Notes: generated by a model not told the origin, from the letters alone. Positions 31,025 through 62,889 are shown, numbered from the stretch's first letter. The stretch: 64,000 nucleotides of DNA from an uncultured Actinomycetes bacterium (GCA_963790335.1 CAWBOB010000003.1:223191-287190), one strand, 5' to 3'. Numbers and translations: made by a program.

Positions 31025-32094
31025 GGAAGCGCACCGCGCTGATCGCAGGAGGGGTCGCGGGAGGCGTCGCCCTCGGCGCGGTCGCGAGCGCCGTCGGCCG
31101 CACGGTGTCGCGCCGCCGGCACGAGCACGCGGAACCCTCAGGCCCGTGGTGGGATCTGCCGCCCGACGATCTCGGCCCGGTGCCTTCGTTCGACGGCACC
31201 CGGCTGGCGGTCAGGGCAGCGGGCGATCCCGCCGCTCCCATGATCCTCTTCGTGCACGGATTCAGCCTCGACATGACCACGTGGCGCGAGCAGTGGACCG
31301 ATCTGTCGGCGGATCATCGATGCGTGCTGATGGATCACCGGGGGCACGGCGCGAGCGAGCATCCCGCCAGTGGCGATCTGTCGGTGCGATCGATGGGTCG
31401 TGACATCGCGGCCGTGATCGACGCGGTGGCGCCCGGCCGCACGGTGGTGATCGTCGGACACAGCATGGGCGCGATCGCGGCGCTGGCGATGGCCGAGGTC
31501 CGCCCCGACGTGATGGCAACCTCGGTGGCGGGGCTCGTGCTCGTGGGGGCGTCCGCATCGGAGCTGGTCCGTGGCGCGATGGGGTCGATCACCGACCTCG
31601 TGCGCCCGCGCCTCGGCTCACTGACCTCGGCGGCCCGCCGCGTCGACCGATTGCGCAAGGCCGTCCTCGCGAGCCCCACGGATCTGCGTGGAGCGGTCGT
31701 GCGCCTCACCCAGCTCGGTCCCGACGCGCCGCGCGACGTCGTCGAGCACGTCGTACGGCTCGCGGAACGCGCCTCCTCGGAGGTGTGGATCGAAGGCCTC
31801 GCACAGCTGCTCGAGACGGATCTGCGCCACGTGCTCACGCGGGCAACCATGCCGGCGCTCGTCATCGTGGGCGAGCACGACCGCGTCACACCACCGGCCA
31901 GCGGCGTGCAGCTCGCTGCGGCGCTCCCTGCGGGCAGGTTCGTGCTGGCCGAGGGGGCAGGCCACATCGCCATGATGGAGCTCCCGGCGATGGTGGACCG
32001 GGAGATCCGGGCGTTCGTGCGTTCCCTGGCGCCGGCGAACCACCCCGTTCGACGGACCCGGCGGTCCCCGACGAACGCGCTGGGAAAGCGATGA
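31021..32094 (+). CDS. Membrane-anchored alpha/beta hydrolase
   Basis: N-terminal TM helix ALIAGGVAGGVALGAVASAV, then ILFVHGFSLD...VIVGHSMGA (GxSxG)...GAGHIAM. ATG 31021 overlaps the alr stop; listed ORF start 30631 lies inside alr. Confidence 0.85.
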   Translation: MRKRTALIAGGVAGGVALGAVASAVGRTVSRRRHEHAEPSGPWWDLPPDDLGPVPSFDGTRLAVRAAGDPAAPMILFVHGFSLDMTTWREQWTDLSADHRCVLMDHRGHGASEHPASGDLSVRSMGRDIAAVIDAVAPGRTVVIVGHSMGAIAALAMAEVRPDVMATSVAGLVLVGASASELVRGAMGSITDLVRPRLGSLTSAARRVDRLRKAVLASPTDLRGAVVRLTQLGPDAPRDVVEHVVRLAERASSEVWIEGLAQLLETDLRHVLTRATMPALVIVGEHDRVTPPASGVQLAAALPAGRFVLAEGAGHIAMMELPAMVDREIRAFVRSLAPANHPVRRTRRSPTNALGKR

Positions 32095-49744: not shown

Positions 49745-52098
49745 GTGCATGCCACCTACACTGGCCTCGTGAACGCGGTCTCGCCCTTGATCGAGGGCCT
49801 GAACGACATCCAGACCGAAGCCGTCCTGCACACGGAGGGTCCGGTGCTGATCGTGGCGGGGGCCGGAAGCGGCAAGACCCGGGCGCTCACCCATCGCATC
49901 GCCTACCTGATCCGCGAACACGGGGTCTCGCCGTTCGAGATCCTCGCGATCACGTTCACGAACAAGGCCGCCCGCGAGATGGCTGAGCGTGTCGGAGGGC
50001 ATGCTCGGGCGAGCGGGTCACCAGGGGCATGTGGATCCTCACGTTCCACTCGACCTGTGCGCGCCTGCTCCGCCGTGAGCACACGCACCTGGGGGTGCCG
50101 AGCGGGTTCACGATCTACGACGACGGCGACACCGAGCGGCTGATCGCCGGCATCCTGAAGGACCTCGACCTCGACCCAAGCGGTTCCCGCCGCGGGCGAT
50201 GGCGAGCGGCATCTCGCGCGCGAAGGACCAGGTGATCGGGCCCGACGAGTTCGCCGAGCATGGCGCGCAACTTCTACGAGGAGACGATCGCGAAGGTGTA
50301 TCACCGCCTACGAAGCCCGCAAGGCGGCGCGGGGGCGCTCGACTTCGACGACCTGATCACGCGAGACCGTTCGGCTGTTCCGCGAGCACCCCGAGGTGCT
50401 GGACCACTACCAGGAGCGGTTCCGCTACCTGATGGTCGACGAGTACCAGGACACGAACCGCGCGCAGTACGAGCTGGTGAACATGCTCGCCGCGAAGCTA
50501 CCGCAACGTGTGCGTCGTGGGCGACGCCGACCAGGGCGTGTACAGCTGGCGCGGCGCCACGATCCAGAACATCTTGGACTTCGAGCGCGACTATCCCGAT
50601 GCGCAGGTGTTCCTGATGGAGCAGAACTACCGCTCCACGCAGAACATCCTGGAGATCGCCAACGCGCTGATCGAGCACAACCAGCAGCGCAAGCCGAAGG
50701 CGCTGTGGACCGAGGCCGGGTCACGGCGAGCTGATCGTGCGTTTCAGCGCCGAGGACGAGCACGAGGAAGCATTCTTCGTCGTCGACGAGATCGAACGAC
50801 TGCGCGAGACCGAGGGCTTCCGCTACTCCGACGTCGCGGTCTTCTATCGCACGAACGCGCAGTCGCGCGTGCTGGAGGACGTGCTGATGCGGGTCGGCAC
50901 GCCCTACCGCGTGTTCGGTGGCGTGCGGTTCTACCAGCGCAAGGAGATCAAGGACGTCCTCGGCGTACCTGCGCCTGCTGCTGAACCCGCAGGACGTGAT
51001 CTCGTTCCGCCGCGTGGTGAACACGCCCAAGCGTGGCATCGGCGACGCGACCGTCGCGGCCTGGAGTCGTTCGCCGAGACGAGGGCATCGACGTGCTCGA
51101 GGCGGTCGCCGCGTGGACGAGATCGCGGTGTTGCGACCCGGGCGAAGGGGGCGGTGGCCGGGTTCAACCAGATCATGGAGGCGATCCGGCGCCATCACGA
51201 CGACGGCGCTGGGCCCGCGCGCATGGTGGAGTTCGCGGCCTCGAGTCGGGCTACATCGTGGAGCTCGAAGAAGAGCGCACGGTCGACGCGCAGGGCCGTA
51301 TCGAGAACATCCAGGAGCTCGCGGGCGTGTCGCGGCCGAGCTGCTCACGCGCGAGCCCGACGCCGGCCTCGAGCAGTTCCTCGAGCAGGTGTCGCTGATC
51401 GGCGAGCAGGACGAGTACGACGAGGACGCATCGAGCGTCACGCTGATGACACTGCACATCGCCAAGGGACTCGAGTTCCCGATCGTGTTCATCGTCGGGA
51501 TGGAGGACGGCATCTTCCCGCACTTCCGATCGATGACCGACGCCGCGCCCTCGAGGAAGAACGCCGGCTCGCGTACGTGGGCATCACCCGGGCGCGACAG
51601 CGTCTCTATCTGACGCACGCCTGGAGCCGAACGCTCTTCGGCCAGAGCCAGTACAACCCGCCGTCTCGGTTCCTCGGCGAGATGCCGGAACACCTGTTCG
51701 ACGTGCGTGAGAGCGAGGGCTCGGCGACCGGATACGGCGGGCGGTACCGGGAGGTCGCGGAAGCCGTGTGACAGCGGGTGCCGGCCCAGGTCCGGGTTCA
51801 GGCGCCGGCGGGTACCCCGGCGCGGGCCGCGGCGGCGGACGCGTGATCGGCGGACGCCGCGAGCACGACGACGACGACCGTGCCCAGCGCCGACTGGACC
51901 CCCCCGCGACCACGAGGTGTTCCCGCTCGTGAGGTGCCCGTCATCGTGCCGGGCGACACCGTCGTGCACGAACGATGGGGCGAGGGCATCGTGCTCACCG
52001 TGAGCGGCAACGGCGACGGCGCCGAGGCCACGATCTCGTTCCCCGAGGTGGGGGAGAAGCGCGTGCTGCTCGCCTACGCCCCGCTAAGGAAAGCGTGA
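49745..52098 (+). pseudogene. pcrA: ATP-dependent DNA helicase PcrA/UvrD, at least 17 frame breaks
   Basis: All helicase motifs are present but scattered over 10 listed ORFs: [115 protein letters not shown], and the C-terminal domain GDTVVHERWGEGIV. GTG 49769 is an alternative start. Confidence 0.88.
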
Positions 52099-52105
52099 AG
52101 CGGGG

Positions 52106-53586
52106 CTATCTCGCCGACAGGACGTCCAGCACGTTGCGGGTGACCCGCTCGACATCGGGGTCGCCGACCCACGAGTCCGCAGGTCCAGTCGGTGACGCCG
52201 GCGTTGAAGACGGTGCCGCCGCCGTTGGGCTTCGTGAACACGCCGATGCAGGCATGGTTGTTCGTCACCCGGTGCACCTGGTCGCGCCAGCCCGGCCCGA
52301 ACACGGCCATCGCGGTGTTCTCGAGCTCGCCCGGCTCGTGCGCGTACCGGCTCGGCTGCTCGGCTTGACTCCAGAGGCGCGCCGGGGCGGTGGCCAGGAT
52401 CTCGAGCCCGTCGGGCGCGCCGTCGGCCCCGGTCGGGACGGGGAGGCCGTCGGGACCGGTCGTGAGCTCCACGCCGTCGACCTCGTAGGCCACGATCGAG
52501 TCGGCGCGGCCGAGCTCGTCGCCGTAGCGCAGATCCGTGCCCTCGAACGCCCAGTGCTCGGGGCCGCCACACCGTGTACGCGCCCGATCCGCGGGGCACG
52601 CCGAGGCCGTAGCGCGAGTAGCCGCCACGGGTGAAGGTGAGGCCGATCGTGCGCGTCTCGGGCCAGGCGATGCGCCGATCGCTCCACGGCCCGGTCACGA
52701 GTCGCTCGTCGGGGGTGCCGACGACCGGATCCTCGTCGGCCCGGTACTTGAAGCAGGTCATCGTGCGATGAGTCGTCGTCGAACCGCACCTGCCAGAAGC
52801 ACGTGTTCCCGCTGAAGGATCGCCGCGTTGCCGCCGGCGTCGGTGAAGGCGTCGAGGGCCTCGCGCATGCCCCACGACCAGTACTCGTCGTGGCCCACCG
52901 ATAGGTACAGACGGTGGCCGTCGAGCACCTCGGGGTGCTGCTCGAGGTCCTCGGAGATCGCGACGTCGACGCTCGTAGCCGCTCGACTCGGCCCAGCGGA
53001 CGAAGTCGCGCTCCCACGTCGCCCAGCCGGAGCCGCCGCTCCAGACCGACAGCCCGAGCGGCTCCGCCCACCGGAAGTACCACAGGCCCTCCCGGTCGGG
53101 TTCCGGTTGCATCTTGCGCCGCGCCGGTGACGGCTTGTCGAGGAAGCCGCGCGCGAGCGGACGTTCGAACGAGACCTGCGTCCCGCCCGTGTAGAGGCTC
53201 GGGCCGCCCCAGTCGTTGTAGGCGTTCCACGTGGACGTCGAGAGCACGAGCACGATCGGGGCGCGCGTCGCCCCGGGCTCCGGTCGCACCACGAAGAACG
53301 CGTCGGCGCGATCATCGCCCGCGGTGAGCGTCACGGAGTAGTAGCCGCTCCTCCAGTCCGCGCCGATCGGGATCTCGAGCGCCGCCGGCCAGCCGCACCC
53401 GTTCGCCGCTGCATCCGCCGGGGTGTCGAACGCCGTGCCTTCGATCGACCCTGCGCGCCAGACCACCTCGCGATCTGCGCCTTCCCGCGCGACCTCGGCG
53501 TCGAACGTCGTGGCATCGGTCGAGACGTGTAGCGGCAGCGTCTCGCCGGGCGTGGCCGATCGTGGAAAGCAGTACGCCTCGAGCAT
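52106..53586 (-). pseudogene. N,N-dimethylformamidase beta-subunit-like protein, at least 5 frame breaks (about 52971, 52818, 52770, 52561, 52164)
   Basis: MLEAYCFPRSATPGETL...LVLSTSTWNAYNDWGG...WAESSGYE | VDVAISEDLEQHPEVLDGHRLYLSVGHDEYWSWGMREAL...NAAI | FSGNTCFWQVRFDDD | TMTCFKYRADEDP...VWRP | EHWAFEGTDLRYGD...GTVFNAGVTDW...; own stop TAG at 52106-52108. Confidence 0.7.
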
Positions 53587-53590
53587 GCGG

Positions 53591-53755
53591 TTACCGGAAC
53601 AGCGCGAAGTAGCCCGCGACCAGGATCACCATGCCGGCCACGAGGGGAGCGACCACCCATGCCAGTCCGAGGCGTCCTCGGTACGGTCCCAACGTGCCGA
53701 CCTTGGTCGTCGGTTTCAGGCCGGGCGGTCGGATCTGGAGCTTCCTGCGAGCCAC
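53591..53755 (-). CDS. Possible 54-aa single-TM protein
   Basis: Own translation: VARRKLQIRPPGLKPTTKVGTLGPYRGRLGLAWVVAPLVAGMVILVAGYFALFR*. It ends 4 nt before the DMFase-like start. No clear SD and no homology recognised. Confidence 0.25.
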   Translation of the reverse strand: MARRKLQIRPPGLKPTTKVGTLGPYRGRLGLAWVVAPLVAGMVILVAGYFALFR

Positions 53756-53807
53756 GAGCCCAGTCTACGGCGGGTACAGTCGCCGCCCTGTCTGCGGGCG
53801 GTCTAGC

Positions 53808-54974
53808 ATGAGGCCAATGTCGATATCCGAACGCGCGGCTCATGGGATCGATCAGGATGAGGCCGGGCCGCCGCCCTGGCCGACCCTTCCCGGCACCGAC
53901 TATCACTCGCCGGACGTATTCGCGATCGAGCGTGAGCGCATCTTCGCTCGCTCGTGGATCTGCGTCGCCCGGTCTGAGCAGCTCCCCGCACCCGGCGACT
54001 ACATCACGGCCGAGGTCGGAGCCGAATCGCCGCTCGTGATCCGCGGCGACGACGGCCTGCTGCGTGCCTTCGCGAACGCCTGCCGCCATCGTGGCACCGA
54101 GCTGCTCCAGGGCTCGGGCTCGGTGCGACGTGTGATCAAGTGTCCGTACCACGCCTGGACGTACGCGCTCGACGGACGGCTCGTGGGCTCGCCGAACATC
54201 GGCCTCGACGACGGCATCGACCGCGACGCGATCGGGCTGTGGCCCGTGCCCATCGCCGAACACGATGGCTTCGTCTTCCTCAGCCTCGACCCGGATACCG
54301 AGCCGCTCCGCGACGCGTTGGCCGCCCAGCCAGACTCACCGCTCGAGCTCGCTCGCTACGGCCTCGGCGAGCTGCGCGTTGCCGAGAGGCGCGAGTACGA
54401 CGTTCAAGCCAACTGGAAGATCGTGGTCGAGAACTACCACGAGTGCCTGCACTGTCCGACCGTGCATCCCGAGCTCGTGAAGATCGTGCCGCTCTATCGC
54501 AGCGGCGAGGTCGAGGAAGGCGGCCAGCTGCTCGGCAACTCGATGGGCGAGGGTCTCACGTCGTTCACGTTCTCCGGGACCTCCCGTCTTCCCACCCTGC
54601 CGGGCATCGACGAGGTCGACGTGCGTACGTTCTACGGCGTCTACGTGTTCCCGAACCTGATCATCAACTACCACTCGGACTCGGTGAACGCGGTGCGCCT
54701 GATCCCGGAGGCCCCGGATCGCACCCGCGTGGTGAGCGAGTTCCTGTTGCGACCCGAGACGATCGAGGCCGACGGATCCGGCGTGAGCGAGCTGGTCGAG
54801 TTCCGCGACGTAGTCGCCAACCAGGACTGGCAGGTGTGTGAAGCCGTGCAGCGGGGCGTCTCGTCGCGGTTCTACACCGCGGGGCTCTATCCCCGGCAGG
54901 AACGCTGGATCAGAGCCTTCAACGAGCGCTACCTGGACGTGAGGGGTCCACTCCCCACGGCACCCACGCGTTAG
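53808..54974 (+). CDS. Rieske [2Fe-2S] aromatic-ring-hydroxylating oxygenase, alpha subunit
   Basis: CRHRGTELL...CPYHAWTY (Rieske CxH/CxxH), then the catalytic domain NYHECLHCPTVHP; ATG 53808 (listed ORF start 53631 is unsupported). Confidence 0.85.
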   Translation: MRPMSISERAAHGIDQDEAGPPPWPTLPGTDYHSPDVFAIERERIFARSWICVARSEQLPAPGDYITAEVGAESPLVIRGDDGLLRAFANACRHRGTELLQGSGSVRRVIKCPYHAWTYALDGRLVGSPNIGLDDGIDRDAIGLWPVPIAEHDGFVFLSLDPDTEPLRDALAAQPDSPLELARYGLGELRVAERREYDVQANWKIVVENYHECLHCPTVHPELVKIVPLYRSGEVEEGGQLLGNSMGEGLTSFTFSGTSRLPTLPGIDEVDVRTFYGVYVFPNLIINYHSDSVNAVRLIPEAPDRTRVVSEFLLRPETIEADGSGVSELVEFRDVVANQDWQVCEAVQRGVSSRFYTAGLYPRQERWIRAFNERYLDVRGPLPTAPTR

Positions 54975-56317
54975 GCGATCACCCGATAGAGCCGCCACTT
55001 GTCGGGGACTCCTTTCAGCTCATGCTCGCCGGCATCTTCGAAGGCGAGGCCACTTCCTGCGACGAGATCCTTCACGGTCTGGGAGACCAGGAGTTCGGAA
55101 GGCGCCGCCGAGCTCGCGATGCGGGCCGCGATGGCGACGCCGATGCCACTGATGTCGCCGCGTTCGCGCACGATCTCGCCGGTATGCAGCCCCGTTCGGA
55201 TCTCGATCCCGAGCGCATGAACCTCTCGCACGATCCTGACGGCGCACTCCACGCCGCGCGCCGGGCCGTCGAAGGTCGCGAGGAAGCCGTCGCCCATCGT
55301 CTTCACCTCCGTGCCTCCGTGATCGGCGAGCGCCTGCCGAACGACGTCGTCGTGCTGCTGTCGTAGGGCTGCCCACGCGGCGTCGCCGATCGCGGCGCTG
55401 TGCGCCGTGGAATCGACGATGTCGGTGAACAGGACGGTCGCGAGCGCCCGCCCTGCGAGCCCGGGCCGCACGGTGGTGGTTCCGAGCACGAGGCGCTCGA
55501 CTGCGGCCAAGAGGGGCTCGGTGTCGCCGAGGAACGGCCACCAGTCCCCGCCCGGCAGCTCGACGAGCTCGGAACCGGGGATCCCTGTCGCGAGGGCTCG
55601 TCCAGCGCCCACCGGGAGGAGCTGGTCGTCGATGCGGTGGAGCACCTGCGTGGGAACCGTGATCGACGACAGCGCACCGCCGATGTCGGTCTCGAAGAGG
55701 AGGCGAAGGAACCCGACTGCGGAGTTCGGGCTCGCAGCGAAGCGCTGGAGGCGGTCGAGGAACCGGAAGAGCTCGCGGTCGCCGGTATGCGACGGCGCCA
55801 TGACCTCGTAGAGGCGCTGGGATTCCGCGACGGTGCCGTACGTGTGCCGCCACCCGAGAACGAACTCCTCGATCTCGGCGTCGCTCGCGCCTTCGCCTTC
55901 TGTCGCCCGCCAGTTGATCGCGGTCTCCATCAGGCTCAAGGTCCGCACGCGTTCAGGATGGAGTGCGGTGAGGAGGGCGGCGAGCTGCCCGCCTTCGTGG
56001 TGCCCGAACAACGACGCCTTGTCCGAACCGGCGTCGTCCATCACGGCGAGGATGTCGCGCGCTCCTTCCTCGAGCGGGGGAAGGTCATCGGCGGAGAACC
56101 GATCCGACATCCCGGTGCCGCGACGGTCGATCACGATCAGCCGAGCCCATCCGGCGATACGATCGAAGAACGCGGCGGCCTGCGGGCACTCCCACAGCAA
56201 TTCGACGTGCGAGACGAAGCCTTGGACGTATACGAGATCGACCGGCCCATCACCCACGACGCCGTACGCGATGGCGACGTCTCCGTTGAAGGCGTACCGG
56301 GCCCGCGGAGCGGTCAT
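54971..56317 (-). CDS. Alpha/beta-hydrolase-fold + class III adenylate/guanylate cyclase fusion (LipJ/Rv1900c-like), paralogue A
   Basis: 448 aa. The N-terminus has [21 protein letters not shown]...DRRGTGMSDR; the C-terminus has [44 protein letters not shown]. Confidence 0.85.
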   Translation of the reverse strand: MTAPRARYAFNGDVAIAYGVVGDGPVDLVYVQGFVSHVELLWECPQAAAFFDRIAGWARLIVIDRRGTGMSDRFSADDLPPLEEGARDILAVMDDAGSDKASLFGHHEGGQLAALLTALHPERVRTLSLMETAINWRATEGEGASDAEIEEFVLGWRHTYGTVAESQRLYEVMAPSHTGDRELFRFLDRLQRFAASPNSAVGFLRLLFETDIGGALSSITVPTQVLHRIDDQLLPVGAGRALATGIPGSELVELPGGDWWPFLGDTEPLLAAVERLVLGTTTVRPGLAGRALATVLFTDIVDSTAHSAAIGDAAWAALRQQHDDVVRQALADHGGTEVKTMGDGFLATFDGPARGVECAVRIVREVHALGIEIRTGLHTGEIVRERGDISGIGVAIAARIASSAAPSELLVSQTVKDLVAGSGLAFEDAGEHELKGVPDKWRLYRVIA

Positions 56318-56339
56318 CGTGACGCAGAGGCGGTAAGGC

Positions 56340-57686
56340 TCATGTCACGACCCCATACAGATGCCATCGGTCAGGGACGCCTTTCAACTCGTGTACTCCT
56401 GCGTCCTCGAAGATGAGGCCGCTCCCCGCAACGAGATCCTTGACCGTCTGGGAGACGAGCACCTGCGAGGGACCGGCGAGGGCGCCCACGCGGGCGCCGA
56501 TCACGACGCCGAGGCCGGCAACGTCATCGCCCTCGATGGCGACCTCGCCTGTGTGCAGTCCGGCCCGTATCTCGATGCCGAGCGGCGCGACCGCCGAGGC
56601 GACCGCCGTCGCGCAGCGCACCCCGCGGGCCGGCCCGTCGAACGTCGCGAGGAATCCATCGCCCATCGTCTTGATCTCGCTTCCGCGGTACCGGGCGATC
56701 TGCGAGCGCACGATCTGGTCATGACGGGCGCGCACATCGCGCCAACCGGCATCGCCGAGCGCGGCCGCCTGCACGGTGGAGTCGACCACGTCGGTGAACA
56801 GCACCGTCGCGAGGACGCGATCGAAGTCAGCCTGCTCGACGCGGAGCGACTCGACGAACGCCGCGATGTGGGGGACGAGATCGTCGAGCGGGTAGACGTG
56901 GTCCTCTCCCGGGAGTTCCACGATGCGCGCGCCGGGCGTGTGCGCCGCGGTCCACCTCCCCTCGGCGACCTTCGTCATCTGTTCTTCGGTCCGATGCAGG
57001 ACGAGTGTCGGCGCCTGGACGGACGGCAGGATGTGGCGGACGTCGGTCTCCATCACCGCGCGATCGCGTGCGATCGCGTCACCCGGGCTGGCCGAGAGCC
57101 GGAGCTGGCGCCCGTACTCCCGCACCGCGTTCTCGTCGTGCAGGAGCGACGGGGACAGCATCTCGACCACCTCACGGACATGGGCGTCGGTGCCCCACGC
57201 CTGCTCGATCCGCTCGAAGTACTCCTCGTACATCTCCCTGCTCCACGTCGCGGGGTAGTCAGGCGCCGGCGTTCCACGCACCATCGGAGCCAGCACGATC
57301 ACCCCCGAGGTGCGATGAGGATGCGTCGCAGCGAACATGAAGCAGAGCGATGCGCCGCTCTCGATCCCGAACACGAACGCACGCTCCGATGACGCCGCGT
57401 CCATGACGGCGCGGATGTCGTCCATCTGCGCTTCGATCGTGGCCGCTTCGCCGGTCCACGAACGGTCCGACGTGCCGCTGCCACGCCGATCGAAGACCAA
57501 CACGCGCCCGATCGAGGCCAAGCCCCGAACGAACGAGACGAACGGGGGGAAGTCCCACGCCGCTTCGATGTTGGAGTAGTCGTAGGGCACGAACACGATG
57601 TCCACAGGACCGGAACCCACCACCTGGTAGCCCACGTGGATCCCGTCCGCCGCGCGCGCGTACCGTGTCTCGGGGGCCCGGGTCAT
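56340..57686 (-). CDS. Alpha/beta-hydrolase-fold + class III cyclase fusion, paralogue B
   Basis: 448 aa, co-linear with A: [70 protein letters not shown]. Confidence 0.85.
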   Translation of the reverse strand: MTRAPETRYARAADGIHVGYQVVGSGPVDIVFVPYDYSNIEAAWDFPPFVSFVRGLASIGRVLVFDRRGSGTSDRSWTGEAATIEAQMDDIRAVMDAASSERAFVFGIESGASLCFMFAATHPHRTSGVIVLAPMVRGTPAPDYPATWSREMYEEYFERIEQAWGTDAHVREVVEMLSPSLLHDENAVREYGRQLRLSASPGDAIARDRAVMETDVRHILPSVQAPTLVLHRTEEQMTKVAEGRWTAAHTPGARIVELPGEDHVYPLDDLVPHIAAFVESLRVEQADFDRVLATVLFTDVVDSTVQAAALGDAGWRDVRARHDQIVRSQIARYRGSEIKTMGDGFLATFDGPARGVRCATAVASAVAPLGIEIRAGLHTGEVAIEGDDVAGLGVVIGARVGALAGPSQVLVSQTVKDLVAGSGLIFEDAGVHELKGVPDRWHLYGVVT

Positions 57687-59014
57687 GACGTCACCCGGAA
57701 GAGCCGCCAGCGGTCGGGCACGCCCTTCAACTCGTGCTCGCCGGCGTCCTCGAACGCGAGGCCCGATCCCGCAACCAGATCCTTGACGGTCTGCGAGACG
57801 AGGACCTCCGAGGGTGCCGCCATCGCTCCGACCCGGGCACCGATCGCCGCAGTTGGCCCGCCCAGGTGGCCGTCGATCACCTCACACTCGCCGACGTGCA
57901 CGCCGGCGCGGATCTCGAGGTCGAGGTCCCGCACATGCCTCGTGATGGCTTCGGCACACCTAACGGCGGCGGCTGGTCCCTCGAACGTTGCGTAGAAGCC
58001 GTCGCCCGCGGTGTCGACTTCGGCGCCGTCGAACGAGACGAGCTCGGCTCGCACGAGCTCGTGATGTCGCTCGAGGAGCGCCTTCCATCGTTCCATGCCG
58101 AGGCGGAAGGCGGTCTCCGTCGACCCCACGATGTCGGTGAAGAGCACGGCCCTCAGCGCACCGCCCGCCGGTGCCGCTCGCGGAGTGACTCCGATGAAGT
58201 CCCTGATCTCAGCGACGAGGGGAGCCTGGTCCCCGGCGGCCGAGTAGCGCTCCGAGCCCGGCAGGGAGACGAGCTTCGCTCCCGGGATGGCTCGTGTCAC
58301 GTACTCGGCCTCCTCGATCCCTTCCTCGAACGCTCGGACGAGGCAGAGCGTCGGCACCGAGATCGAGGGAAGAACGTCACGGATGTCGGTCCCGTAGAAG
58401 CGACGAAGCAACTCGACTGCGTCGCCCGGTGCTGCCCAGTGACGTTGGAGGCGGGCGTACCATCGGATCAGGCTTCGGTCACCGGCGAGCGACGGCGCGA
58501 CGCCTTCCATGAACGCGGCCGCATATCCGTCGGTTCCCCAGCTTCGACGGACGGCCTCGATGTCGGCGAACGCCTCTTCCTCCGTCGCCCCCCACGGGTA
58601 GCCGTCGGCGATGGTCCCGCGAGCCGCCGGATCGAAGAGGCAGAGAGCGCGGACGCGACGTGGATGGGTCGCGGCGAACAAGGGGGCCACCACGTTCCCA
58701 GCACCGACGATGACCGTCGAACGAGAACCCACCGCATCGAGCACCGCCAGGATGTCGCGTGCCTCGGTCTCGAGATCGGGAAGGCCGGCGTTTCGATCGG
58801 AGAGACCGGTGCCGCGCATGTCGTGACGGATCACGCGGGAGAAGGTGTTGAGCTTCGTCGTCAACGCCGGGATCAGCGGATGCTCCCACTGCAGCTCCAG
58901 TCCGCCATTGAAACTGTGGATCCACAGGACGTCGACCGGGCCGTCACCGACCACGTGGTAGGCGATGTGCACCCCGTCCTCGGTCAGCGCGTATCGGGTC
59001 TCCGGAGCGTCCAC
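57683..59014 (-). CDS. Alpha/beta-hydrolase-fold + class III cyclase fusion, paralogue C
   Basis: 443 aa, [69 protein letters not shown]; its stop overlaps the paralogue B start (ATGA). Confidence 0.85.
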
Positions 59015-59015
59015 C

Positions 59016-60359
59016 TCAACTCACCACCCGATACAGGCGCCAGCGGTCGGGCACGCCCTTCAGCTCGTGCTCGCCCGCTTCCTCGAACGTCAATCCGGAT
59101 CCCGCCACGAGATCCCTCACGGTCTGCGAGACGAGCACCTCCGAGGCGCCGGCCATCGCTCCGACGCGCGCCCCGATCACGACGGCCATCCCGCCGACCT
59201 TGCCGTCGATCGACTCGACCTCGCCCGTGTGCACGCCCGTGCGCACCTCGATGCCGAGCGGCGCGATCGCGGCGACGATCGCGCCCGCGCACCGCACGGC
59301 TCGAGCGGGCCCGTCGAACGTCGCGAAGAACCCGTCGCCAGCGGTATCGACCTCGACCCCGCGGAAGCGGGCGAGCTGTCCCCGCACGCGACGATGGTGC
59401 GTCTCGAGGAGCTCCTTCCAGGCTCGATCCCCGAGCTCGGCGGCCTTCTCGGTCGAACCGACGACGTCGGTGAAGAGCACGGTGGCGAGCGCGCGGTCGA
59501 GTCCGGCTTCCGTCTCGCCGAGCTCCAGGACGAACCGTTCGACCTCGTCGAGGATCTCGTCCTGCGGACCGACCCACGGGAAGTGCACGCTGCCCGGCAG
59601 CTCGACGAACTCGGCGCCGACGATCCGTTCGGCGGTGTCTCGGCTCTCCTCGATCGGGAAGTCGAGGTCGCCCGTCCTCGCGATCACGAGCGTCGGCACG
59701 TGGATCGACGCGAGTGCGTGCGTGGCGTTGATCTCACGGTTCATGCGTTCGAGCGTGATCGCGGCCGAGGGGCTCGCCGATCGACGCATGTAGGAGGCGA
59801 GCCACGTGATCAGCCGTTCGTCTCCCTCGAACCCGGGTGCCCCCCAGTTCTCGGTCTCGTGGCGCGCGAACTCGGTGGTGCCCCAGGTGCGCTCCAGGCG
59901 CTCGAGGTAGGCAGCGTCGTCATCCTTGTAGTCCGGCGACCTGATCGTGAAGTCGGCTGCGGTGCCGTAGAGCGCGAGCGCCACCGTGCGTTCCGGATAG
60001 GTCGCAGCGAAGAGCATCGACATCGGGCCGCCCTCGGACACTCCGAAGACCACCGCCCGCTCCGACCCCACGGCGTCCATCACGGCTCGCACGTCGTCCA
60101 TGCGCGTCTCGAGGTTCGGCAGGCGATCGTCGGGCACGCGATCGGACAGTCCGACGCCACGCTTGTCGAACAGGATCAAGCGCGAGATCGTGGCGAGACG
60201 GTCGAGGAACCTCGCGAAGTCCGGTTCTTCCCACATGGCCTCGACGTTCGAGAGCCACCCCATCACGAACACCATGTCGACGGGCCCGTCGCCGACGACC
60301 TGGTAGGCGATGTGCACACCGTCGGCGGCCTTCGCGTACCGGGTCTCGGGGCTGCGCAT
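59016..60359 (-). CDS. Alpha/beta-hydrolase-fold + class III cyclase fusion, paralogue D (only copy with intact GxSxG)
   Basis: ATG 60359 (GGAG 9 nt upstream) gives [28 protein letters not shown], matching the other copies. Motifs: [45 protein letters not shown]. The listed TTG 60395 adds 12 aa. Confidence 0.85.
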
Positions 60360-60431
60360 CCGTGGATACTCCGCCCGGGGCACCCTGCGCCGCAAGCCGA
60401 GACCCGGGCGCCGTCGCTAGACTCAGCCGCG

Positions 60432-60842
<411 letters not shown>

Positions 60843-60879
60843 TCCTGCTCAGACTACCGATCATCGTCCCGGGGGCTCC

Positions 60880-62024
60880 ATGGACCTGTACGAGCACCAA
60901 GGCAAGGAGCTCTTCCGTTCCCAGGGCATCGTGACGCCGAAAGGCATCGTGGCCGAGACCGCCGAGCAGGCTGCCGATGCGACCCGCGAGCTGGGTGGCC
61001 GCAGCGTCGTGAAGGTCCAGGTGCAGGTCGGCGGACGCGGCAAGGGCGGCGGCGTCGTGCTGGTCGACTCGCCCGAGCGGGCCGCCGAGGAGGCGGCCCG
61101 CATGCTCGGCTCGGACTTCAAGGGGCACCGGGTGAACCAGGTGCTGGTCGAGGAGCTGCTGCCGATCGCGCACGAGTTCTACACGTCGATGCTGCTCGAT
61201 CGCTCCACCGGCGATCACCTCGCGATGATGACCGCCGAAGGAGGCATCGACATCGAGGAGCTCGCGCGCACCCGGCCGCAGGCGCTTCGCCGTGTGCACA
61301 TCGACGCGATCCTCGGGCTGCGCGCCTTCCACGTGCGCGAGCTCGTCGGCACGCTGCCAGCCGGCGCGCGCGAGGGAGCGGCCGACGTACTGCGGCGCAT
61401 GCACGACCTGGTGCAGGCACGTGACGCGACGCTCGTCGAGGTCAACCCCCTCGTGCAGCTCGACGACGGCTCGGTCGTGGCGCTCGACGCCAAGGTCACG
61501 GTCGACGACAACGCGCTGTTCCGCCACCCGGAGATCGAGGCGTACGCCGACGCGTTCCCGATCGATCCCGTGCAGGCGCGGGCGAACGAGGAGGGCTTGC
61601 AGTACGTGAAGCTCGAGGGCAGCGTCGGCATCATCGGCAACGGCGCCGGCCTCGTGATGTCGACGCTCGACCTGGTGGCACAGGCGGGCGCGAAGGCGGC
61701 GAACTTCCTCGACGTGGGGGGAGGGGCGAGCGCCGACCAGATGGCGGCCTCGCTCGAGGTGGTGCTCTCGGATCCGTCGGTGCGGCGGTGCTCATCAACA
61801 TCTTCGGGGGCATCACCCGGTGCGACCTGGTCGCCCGGGGCGTGCTCGATGCGCTCGAACGGGTCGAGGCCTCGGTACCGCTCGTCGTGCGGCTCGACGG
61901 CACCAACGCGGCCGAGGGGCGCGCGATCCTCGATGCCGCCGCGCACCCGCGCATCGTGTCGGCGGCGACCATGCCCGAGGCGGCCGAGCTGGCGGCTTCC
62001 TCGGCGAACGGACGGGCGGCGTGA
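60880..62024 (+). pseudogene. sucC: Succinate--CoA ligase beta subunit, one nt missing at about 61785 (G run)
   Basis: MDLYEHQGKELFRSQGIVTPKG...VKVQVQVGGRGKGGGV...[15 protein letters not shown]...LSDPSVR | [20 protein letters not shown]... (listed ORF 61788-62024). Confidence 0.9.
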
Positions 62025-62889
62025 GCATCCTCGTCGGCGAGCAGACCCGGCTCGCGGTGCAGGGGCTCACGGGCAAGGAGGGCACGTTCCACAGCCTGCG
62101 GAACCGCGCCTACGGCACGAACGTCGTCGCGGGCGTCACGCCCGGCAAGGCCGGGCACGAGGTCGAAGGCATCCCCGTGTTCGACACGGTCGCCGACGCG
62201 GTCCGTGAGGCGGGCGCGAACACGAGCGTGATCTTCGTGCCTCCTCGGTTCGCGGCCGAGGCCATCCTCGAGGCCGCGGACGCCGGCGTCGCGCTCGTCG
62301 TCTGCATCACCGAGGGCATCCCGGTCAAGGACATGGCGTACGTGCACGGCTTCCTGAAGGGGCGCGGTACGACGCTCGTCGGCCCCAACTGTCCCGGCGT
62401 CATCTCGCCCGGTCAGGCGAACGTCGGCATCATCCCGCCCGAGGTCTGCATGCCCGGACGGGTCGGGTTCGTGAGCCGCTCGGGCACGCTCGTCTACCAG
62501 ATCGTGCACGAGCTCACCCAGCACGGCATCGGTCAGTCGACGTGCGTCGGCATGGGCGGCGACCCGGTTCACGGCCTAGGGTTCATCGAGGCGCTGACCG
62601 CGTTCGAAGCCGACCCGGGGACCGACCTGATCATCATGACCGGTGAGATCGGGGAGACGACGAGGAGCGTGCCGCGGCCTACGTCGACGAGCACGTCACG
62701 AAACCGGTGGTGGCCTACATCGCCGGGTTCGAGGCACCTCCGGGCAAACGCATGGGTCACGCAGGGGCGATCGTGACCGGTTCGACGGGAACGGCGGCTG
62801 CGAAAGCCGACGCGTTGCAAGCCGCGGGCGTGCGTGTCGCTCGCACGCCCGGCGAGGTCGCCGAGCTCACCCGGGCGGCGCTCGCATGA
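62021..62889 (+). pseudogene. sucD: Succinate--CoA ligase alpha subunit, one nt missing at about 62654 (G run)
   Basis: [25 protein letters not shown]...[11 protein letters not shown]...SRSGTLVYQ...IIMTGEIG | [41 protein letters not shown]...; GTGA overlap with sucC. Confidence 0.9.

Follow-up and report, generated by a model that had tools for sequence, protein, structure and literature searches.

The stretch of DNA analysed here, 64,000 nt from an uncultured Actinomycetes bacterium (GCA_963790335.1, CAWBOB010000003.1:223191-287190) and referred to below as the window, carries an array of four consecutive minus-strand genes, each encoding an N-terminal alpha/beta-hydrolase fold joined to a C-terminal class III nucleotide cyclase domain. 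The copies are numbered c4 to c1 along the direction of transcription (Table 1) and are closely packed, with a gap of 1 nt between c4 and c3, a 4-nt ATGA overlap between c3 and c2 in which the ATG of c2 overlaps the stop codon of c3, and a gap of 22 nt between c2 and c1. At c4, a longer TTG-initiated open reading frame (ORF) extends to 60395. The four ORFs of 443-448 aa, their spacers and a set of hydrolase and cyclase motifs had been described in an earlier reading made from the sequence alone (the sequence-only reading), and all of them were recovered by ORF calling and inspection of the ORFs. The same reading held that the copies align with each other over their full length, which pairwise protein comparison confirmed, with 43-52% identity end to end, and with the hydrolase halves (36-43%) having diverged further than the cyclase halves (56-69%). 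Both Abhydrolase_1 and Guanylate_cyc hidden Markov models (HMMs) score above the Pfam gathering cutoffs in all four ORFs, and the NCBIfam LipJ model NF058673, named "bifunctional lipase/adenylate cyclase LipJ", matches each of them end to end with 346-403 bits; together with the matches to the Rv1900c structure 1ybt, these results substantiate the proposed fourfold occurrence of the LipJ/Rv1900c domain pair. The scores lie below the NF058673 equivalog cutoff of 800, showing that c1-c4 are paralogues of LipJ rather than its orthologues. No further class III cyclase domain was found by HMM search in the 64-kb window. The array is probably a copy-number-plastic expansion of LipJ-like cyclases, in which each product would form its own homodimer and the hydrolase domain would serve as the input.

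The array is not a repeat-expansion artefact, because the copies are diverged with saturated synonymous sites and because independent assemblies reproduce their order. DNA identity among the copies is 52-75%, and the proportion of synonymous differences (pS) between them reaches 0.5-0.76. An independent contig from the Joint Genome Institute (JGI), L092, is collinear with positions 60675-56428 of the window at 94.9% identity and carries c4 (93%), c3 (97%) and c2 (97%) before the contig ends, while L085, an independent contig of an NCBI metagenome-assembled genome (MAG), reproduces c2 (93%), c1 (93%) and the convergent Rieske gene that follows c1. A recent duplication, or the assembly expansion of one or two genes that the sequence-only reading had allowed for, is ruled out by these data. 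Some flanking housekeeping genes are nevertheless split in this assembly, i.e., sucC, sucD, pcrA/uvrD and a DMFA2_C-like gene (Table 1). Their Pfam matches end mid-domain, and sucC shows a 1-nt deletion at ~61783 relative to the intact gene of L085, which suggests that an indel-prone (long-read) assembly, and not true pseudogenization, accounts for the splits. Despite the frameshifted neighbours in the same assembly, the ORFs of c1-c4 are all intact.

Each copy possesses separate orthologues in other genomes. Those of c4 share 80-93% identity and are found in more than 100 protein clusters and at 25 genome loci; those of c3 share 82-97% (L039, L088, L091, L092), those of c2 92-97% (L005, L045, L052, L056, L059, L065, L085, L092) and those of c1 93-94% (P0121, P0122/L085). 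The ratio of nonsynonymous to synonymous substitution rates (dN/dS, omega) between orthologues is 0.12-0.16 for c4, 0.14 for c3 and 0.11-0.13 for c2, and 0.30 for c1 when measured against a homologue of 68% identity; across both domains of the orthologues, omega ranges from 0.08 to 0.33. The presence of separate orthologues under purifying selection shows that the paralogues are old and that each is maintained by selection.

The family to which these genes belong is very large in uncultured soil Actinomycetota, with at least 8000 scored candidates in each of two protein searches and 509 relatives confirmed among the species-representative genomes scanned. When 84 related loci were scanned with domain HMMs on six-frame translations, tandem fusion units were found in 29 of them and four or more units in 13. 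The biggest arrays hold at least 7, 9, 10 and 11 units, counted within 10-kb flanks, and the median gap between adjacent units across the surveyed arrays is ~10 nt. The sequence-only reading had considered that the array might turn out to be both common and already characterised in relatives; the first part holds, with as many as 11 units at one locus, whereas none of these arrays is characterised. Family members were also seen in MAGs assigned to other phyla, at 9995-11332 of L052 (Planctomycetaceae), where the unit is ~92% identical to c2, and at 10007-11320 of L051 (Eisenbacteria). These members are likely the result of binning contamination, with horizontal transfer being possible.

In a group of relatives, the array is bounded, as in the window, by sucCD plus a B12-binding-domain gene and, at its opposite end, by a DMFA2-like gene plus uvrD/pcrA. 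The flanking DNA is 79-95% identical, and the number of units between these flanks varies widely: one in L002, two in L001, three in L085, four in L035, L088, L091 and the window, and 11 in L005. The composition varies as well. The single unit of L002 is c4, L001 has c4-c4', L085 has c4-c2-c1, L091 has c4-X-c3-c2, L035 has c4-Y-c2-Z, and L092 has c4-c3-c2 up to its contig end. The arrays of L087-L090 open with a unit whose cyclase domain is truncated and continue with c3-c4'-W; in L086 a hydrolase-only gene is followed by c4 and a c1-like unit, and in L005 the orthologues of c3, c1 and c2 stand in a different order among the 11 units. The order c4-c3-c2-c1 is repeated only in near-identical relatives among the loci compared, the neighbour of c3 differs from lineage to lineage, and every unit type is also present at single-copy loci. 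The degenerate units of L087-L090 and L086 stand at the head of their arrays. In L088 (8884-9999; also in L087, L089 and L090), this is a 371-aa gene in which the hydrolase is joined directly to the last third of the cyclase domain, both metal-binding Asp residues being deleted; in L086 (1016-1873), it is a 285-aa hydrolase-only gene.

The L085 array also preserves the position at which such a change took place. Precisely c3 is missing from it, and the first gene resembles c4 until ~35 nt before the stop codon and c3 from there into the c3/c2 junction. The switch from c4 to c3 falls inside a 38-nt block of c4, which differs at 1 nt from the matching block at the 3' end of c3 (Table 1). A one-unit difference combined with a breakpoint in shared sequence is the signature of unequal homologous recombination, and the L085 arrangement points to such an event. 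The block is part of a longer region of high conservation, i.e., the C-terminal ~45 residues ([36 protein letters not shown]), which are nearly invariant among the paralogues despite the saturated synonymous sites. Third-position identity in this region is 0.40-0.52, no higher than elsewhere, so that gene conversion is ruled out for most pairs as the source of the near-identity and the block appears to be kept by selection at the protein level. The c3-c4 pair alone is raised (third-position identity 0.68, pS 0.39), which fits the recombination junction. The C-terminal block doubles as a recombination substrate.

Residues of the cyclase domain were read from the alignment to 1ybt and surveyed in 157 intact units from 85 loci. 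The two metal-binding Asp residues (D299/D343 in c1 and c2, D294/D338 in c3, D298/D342 in c4) and the transition-state Arg (R399 in c1 and c2, R394 in c3, R398 in c4) are invariant in all 157 units. The base-specifying pair differs between the copies: c1 and c2 have the canonical Lys/Asp (ATP-type) pair, K339/D388 in both, c4 has the swapped pair Asp/Lys (D338/K387), and c3 has Asp/His (D334/H383). Over the 157 units, these two purine-pocket positions covary strictly (K/D 37, D/K 77, K/K 0, D/D 6), and the D/K state is kept throughout the c4 orthogroup. The position of the canonical transition-state Asn is occupied by Ala in c1 (A395) and c3 (A390) and by Val in c2 (V395) and c4 (V394). For c3, which is the most degenerate of the copies, an AlphaFold2 model has a mean predicted local distance difference test (pLDDT) score of 91.3 and a predicted template modelling (pTM) score of 0.86, and its cyclase domain superposes in Foldseek on that of Rv1900c (1ybu_B) with a template modelling (TM) score of 0.95 and a root-mean-square deviation of 1.2 Å.

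The Rv1900c cyclase domain is also the closest solved relative by sequence (1ybt, E = 6e-45, ~52% identity). Rv1900c/LipJ (1ybt/1ybu; NF058673) shares with c1-c4 the order of the two domains, the length of ~450 aa, both metal-binding Asp residues and the Arg. However, it is a single gene in M. tuberculosis in contrast to the four copies of the array, and its pocket and transition-state positions read Asn/Asp/His in the 1ybt alignment, compared with K/D/A in c1, K/D/V in c2, D/H/A in c3 and D/K/V in c4. The second-closest solved cyclase domain is that of M. avium Ma1120 (4wp3, 4wp9, 5d0e; E = 1e-29 to 7e-30, TM 0.94-0.95), a protein without an alpha/beta-hydrolase domain, whose Lys/Asp pair is not found in c3 and c4. 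The K/D/A/R signature of c1 is identical to that of Ma1120, and that of c2 is close to it. Ma1120 is an active adenylyl cyclase with K101/D157/A164/R168, and introducing the Asn abolishes its activity (PMC4215837). The absent Asn is thus ruled out as proof of inactivity, as Ma1120 is active with Ala at that position.

The hydrolase domain presents the opposite picture, with its catalytic positions, anchored on the solved esterases 8v16 and 4uhc, largely lost. Only c4 has the full Ser-Asp-His triad among the window copies, with the nucleophile elbow GVSEGG. In c1, the elbow reads GHHEGG, with His replacing the nucleophile and Trp replacing the catalytic His (H/D/W at the triad positions); in c2, the elbow GIESG has Glu at the nucleophile position and the His is kept (E/E/H); in c3, the elbow VGAGN contains a 2-residue deletion, the catalytic His is missing, and E and R occupy the other two triad positions. 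An alignment slip in c2, with the adjacent Ser as the real nucleophile, is unlikely, since Ser is absent from many E-type elbows (GIEDGG, GVEDGG). Judging from these residues, c1-c3 cannot have esterase activity of the usual type, as they are without the Ser nucleophile. The loss is not confined to the window: the full triad is present in only 45 of the 157 units, and the nucleophile position is hypervariable inside a conserved elbow (S 56, E 24, Q 16, G 15, A 10, others). Nevertheless, the hydrolase domains of the orthologues evolve under similar constraint whether they are dead (omega 0.13-0.15 for c2, 0.13 for c3) or intact (0.14-0.19 for c4). As the nucleophile has been replaced by many different residues yet purifying selection persists, the domain appears to be important for something other than hydrolysis, and the dead but conserved domains of c1-c3 are probably sensor or regulatory inputs.

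To our knowledge, no explanation has been given for what the alpha/beta-hydrolase domain does in LipJ-type cyclases. LipJ itself is reported to be an esterase (PMC10865251), in contrast to the array, in which three of the four copies are missing the Ser nucleophile. A model for a regulatory role is offered by KAI2/D14 and RsbQ, in which a hydrolase fold acts as a small-molecule sensor controlling an output and whose folds are matched by the N-terminal domains of the array, both in sequence and in Foldseek comparisons of the c3 model with solved alpha/beta-hydrolases (6atx, 4ih9, 9jqg; TM ~0.8). This likeness is at the general level of the fold, as the matches to PcaD-type lactonases and aryl esterases are just as good, and KAI2, D14 and RsbQ keep the catalytic Ser-Asp-His, whereas c1-c3 do not. 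The sole other hydrolase-HMM match in the window is a stand-alone Abhydrolase_1 gene without a cyclase domain (Table 1).

These observations can be combined in the reading given above, i.e., a copy-number-plastic expansion of homodimeric cyclases. On this view, four LipJ/Rv1900c-type paralogues, all of them old and each conserved in its own right, would stand in tandem at a site where unequal homologous recombination would have repeatedly added, removed and rearranged units, with the strongly conserved 3' end of the cyclase-coding region as its substrate. A single transcript, most likely started in the short spacer between c4 and the divergent B12-binding-domain gene, would cover the whole array. 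Because the two metal-binding Asp residues, the Arg of the transition state and a purine-pocket pair are present in each copy, each product would most likely act as its own head-to-tail homodimeric cyclase, like Rv1900c and Ma1120. The cyclase domain may then be regarded as the conserved output and the hydrolase-fold domain as the diversified input. The triad of c4 may still cleave an ester, as reported for LipJ, while the hydrolase domains of c1-c3 fit a ligand-binding or regulatory pseudo-enzyme. The array would thus supply several differently gated sources of cyclic nucleotide.

Several points weigh against this reading. The canonical transition-state Asn is replaced in all four copies, and the canonical Lys is missing from c3 and c4, suggesting that some copies could be weak or inactive cyclases or could use another substrate. 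The tight translational coupling of the genes is equally expected for the subunits of a complex. The strong C-terminal constraint shared by all copies is not accounted for, and it could reflect a shared interface. Finally, the case for the hydrolase domain as a sensor is built on the analogy with alpha/beta-hydrolase receptors and on patterns of selection.

Part of this evidence would suit a different arrangement, which the sequence-only reading had put forward, namely that the four copies form a hetero-oligomeric cyclic nucleotide module. Here, co-translated paralogues would pair via their cyclase domains, creating heterodimeric sites with properties that no homodimer has. Class III cyclases work as dimers with active sites at the interface (PMC4174876), the genes are translationally coupled, the C-terminal block is almost identical in all copies and kept by selection on the protein, and the array mixes units with the K/D pair (c1, c2) and units with an acid-then-base pair (c3, c4). 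However, a module of this kind calls for partners that stay together, and the set and order of units vary freely at the syntenic site, c3 has different neighbours in different lineages, and c4 does without any partner in L002. Obligate pairing of K/D with D/K units is ruled out by the existence of single-copy loci of both and by the fact that both pair types occur together in only 10 of 30 arrays. The catalytic residues tell the same story: no complementary degeneration is seen, since every intact unit retains the Arg as well as the two metal-binding Asp residues, and each unit can therefore form symmetric homodimer sites. This is where the array departs from the obligate heterodimers, i.e., mammalian membrane adenylyl cyclase C1/C2 and soluble guanylyl cyclase (sGC) alpha/beta, whose catalytic domains share its fold and likewise build their active site as a dimer (PMC3591389, PMC2576301). 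In those enzymes, the halves have lost complementary residues so that only the heterodimer has a site, whereas the array copies keep the full set and have no partners of fixed co-occurrence. The solved relatives Rv1900c and Ma1120 are both homodimers. A parallel in gene arrangement is Rv1318c-Rv1319c-Rv1320c of M. tuberculosis, which are adjacent same-strand class III cyclase paralogues, as in the array. They are membrane HAMP-domain cyclases and constitute a fixed three-gene set, whereas the array units are soluble hydrolase fusions whose number ranges from 1 to 11 between close relatives. Of these, the tandem paralogues Rv1319c and Rv1320c form an operon (PMC3961136), and the system is a precedent for such an arrangement without a demonstrated hetero-complex. 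With neither a fixed partner set nor complementary degeneration, the proposed hetero-oligomeric module was not borne out and is considered unlikely, while occasional heterodimers between co-expressed paralogues are possible.

The covariation in the purine pocket raises the question of whether the array makes two products, with c1 and c2 producing cyclic AMP (cAMP) and with c4 (D/K) and c3 (D/H) preferring another nucleotide, e.g., GTP. In guanylyl cyclases, an acidic residue at position 1 reads the guanine amine and position 2 reads the carbonyl (PMC2576301); guanine would be accommodated by a pocket that has Asp at position 1 and a Lys donor at position 2, and the strict covariation and the conservation of the D/K state across the c4 orthogroup agree with this idea. 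However, hydrogen-bond logic is its sole basis, and specificity residues are poor predictors of the substrate in this branch, as Rv1900c has Asn/Asp and the Ma1120 mutants gave unexpected behaviour (PMC4215837). A characterised D/K cyclase was not found in the literature searched, and the swap could simply preserve a salt bridge. A two-product array is improbable. The remaining explanation, in which only c4 is functional and c1-c3 are nascent pseudogenes or mis-assembled repeats, would draw on the missing nucleophile in three of the four copies, on the indel-prone assembly with its sucC deletion and on truncated units in relatives (e.g., the first gene of L088, g1, without the metal-binding half of the cyclase domain), but it is largely refuted and very unlikely given four intact ORFs in an assembly that frameshifts their neighbours, orthologues under purifying selection in both domains, copies that differ by ~50% in protein and recur in independent assemblies, and a confidently folded c3 model.

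With the expansion of homodimeric LipJ-like cyclases as the preferred reading, the basic picture is unchanged, in that the array represents the expansion of a known enzyme type. Three features were not described in the literature searched, i.e., that whole units come and go at a fixed site, that the hydrolase nucleophile is widely lost while the domain stays constrained, and that the base-specifying positions covary as K/D or D/K. The family constitutes a natural series in which the cyclase machinery is invariant and the hydrolase nucleophile varies while the domain remains under purifying selection. The arrays also illustrate the way in which a family of signalling proteins grows in uncultured soil Actinomycetota, with whole units being added or removed so that 1-11 of them stand at one site. 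How class III cyclases select their substrate may be approached through the K/D versus D/K covariation, which offers a simple lead open to testing. A bolder extension, which is doubtful, is that the swapped Asp/Lys pair of c4 (Asp/His in c3) marks a large clade of class III cyclases in soil Actinomycetota making a product other than cAMP, e.g., cyclic GMP, and that the arrays combine product specificities gated by hydrolase-type sensors. If this were true, the array would be a recombination-driven, modular small-molecule "sensor array" with mostly dead hydrolase-fold sensors.

Table 1. Coordinates of the array, its sequence blocks and other features of the window.
Feature	Position	Strand	Description
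c4, first gene	59016-60359	minus	447 aa, ATG start; ORF calling
c3	57683-59014	minus	443 aa, GTG start, not ATG; ORF calling
c2	56340-57686	minus	448 aa, ATG start; ORF calling
c1, last gene	54971-56317	minus	448 aa, ATG start; ORF calling
38-nt block in c4, encoding [12 protein letters not shown]	59038-59075	minus	Site of the L085 recombination junction
Matching 38-nt block, 3' end of c3	57705-57742	minus	Putative partner for unequal recombination
Near-invariant C-terminal blocks	54974-55108, 56343-56477, 57686-57820, 59019-59153	minus	Last ~135 nt of each copy
Divergent intergenic spacer, c4 / B12-binding-domain gene	60360-60428		69 nt; presumed promoter and 5' region of the array
B12-binding-domain gene	60429-60842	plus	137 aa; divergent to c4
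Rieske / ring-hydroxylating oxygenase alpha-subunit gene	53631-54974	plus	Converges on c1, 4-nt overlap
sucC	60808-62208		Split
sucD	~61820-62776		Split
pcrA/uvrD	49745-51771		Split
DMFA2_C-like gene	52084-53586		Split
Stand-alone Abhydrolase_1 gene	31294-32019	plus	No cyclase domain; E = 1.6e-23
Weak Rfam match mir-3622 (animal miRNA), inside c2	56472-56552	both	30 bits vs. gathering 78, E = 0.02

The promoter of the array is presumed to lie in the spacer upstream of c4 on account of its position; no sigma-70 consensus was found in this spacer. The number of terminator-like sites (2, with 1.2 expected) is not above chance, and this, together with the tight packing, is in line with the proposal of the sequence-only reading that the genes form a single transcription unit, in that they are probably co-transcribed. 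No RNA elements beyond chance were found with Rfam; the weak match to mir-3622 inside c2 is most likely a chance GC-rich hairpin. Housekeeping genes make up the neighbourhood within ~10 kb: one flank holds sucCD together with purine/folate genes, and the other holds uvrD, sortase, guaA and guaB. No domain for cyclic nucleotide binding or for phosphodiesterase activity was found within ~10 kb in the Pfam-annotated syntenic relatives, and the remark in the earlier reading that neither an effector nor a phosphodiesterase lies nearby thus stands over this distance.

The Rieske gene that converges on c1 forms a second presence/absence polymorphism adjoining the array, as it is present in L085 and L035 and absent at the same site in L001, L002, L005, L088 and L091. 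On the other side, every syntenic relative has the B12-binding-domain gene next to c4. At loci with other surroundings, c4 orthologues also occur near a MerR and B12-binding (CarH-like) regulator (L003, 11737-12603; L004, 4334-5200), together with a 1175-aa cyclase-AAA16-TPR protein and an nSTAND-WD40 protein. The recurrence of a B12-binding protein near c4 orthologues may be a coincidence.

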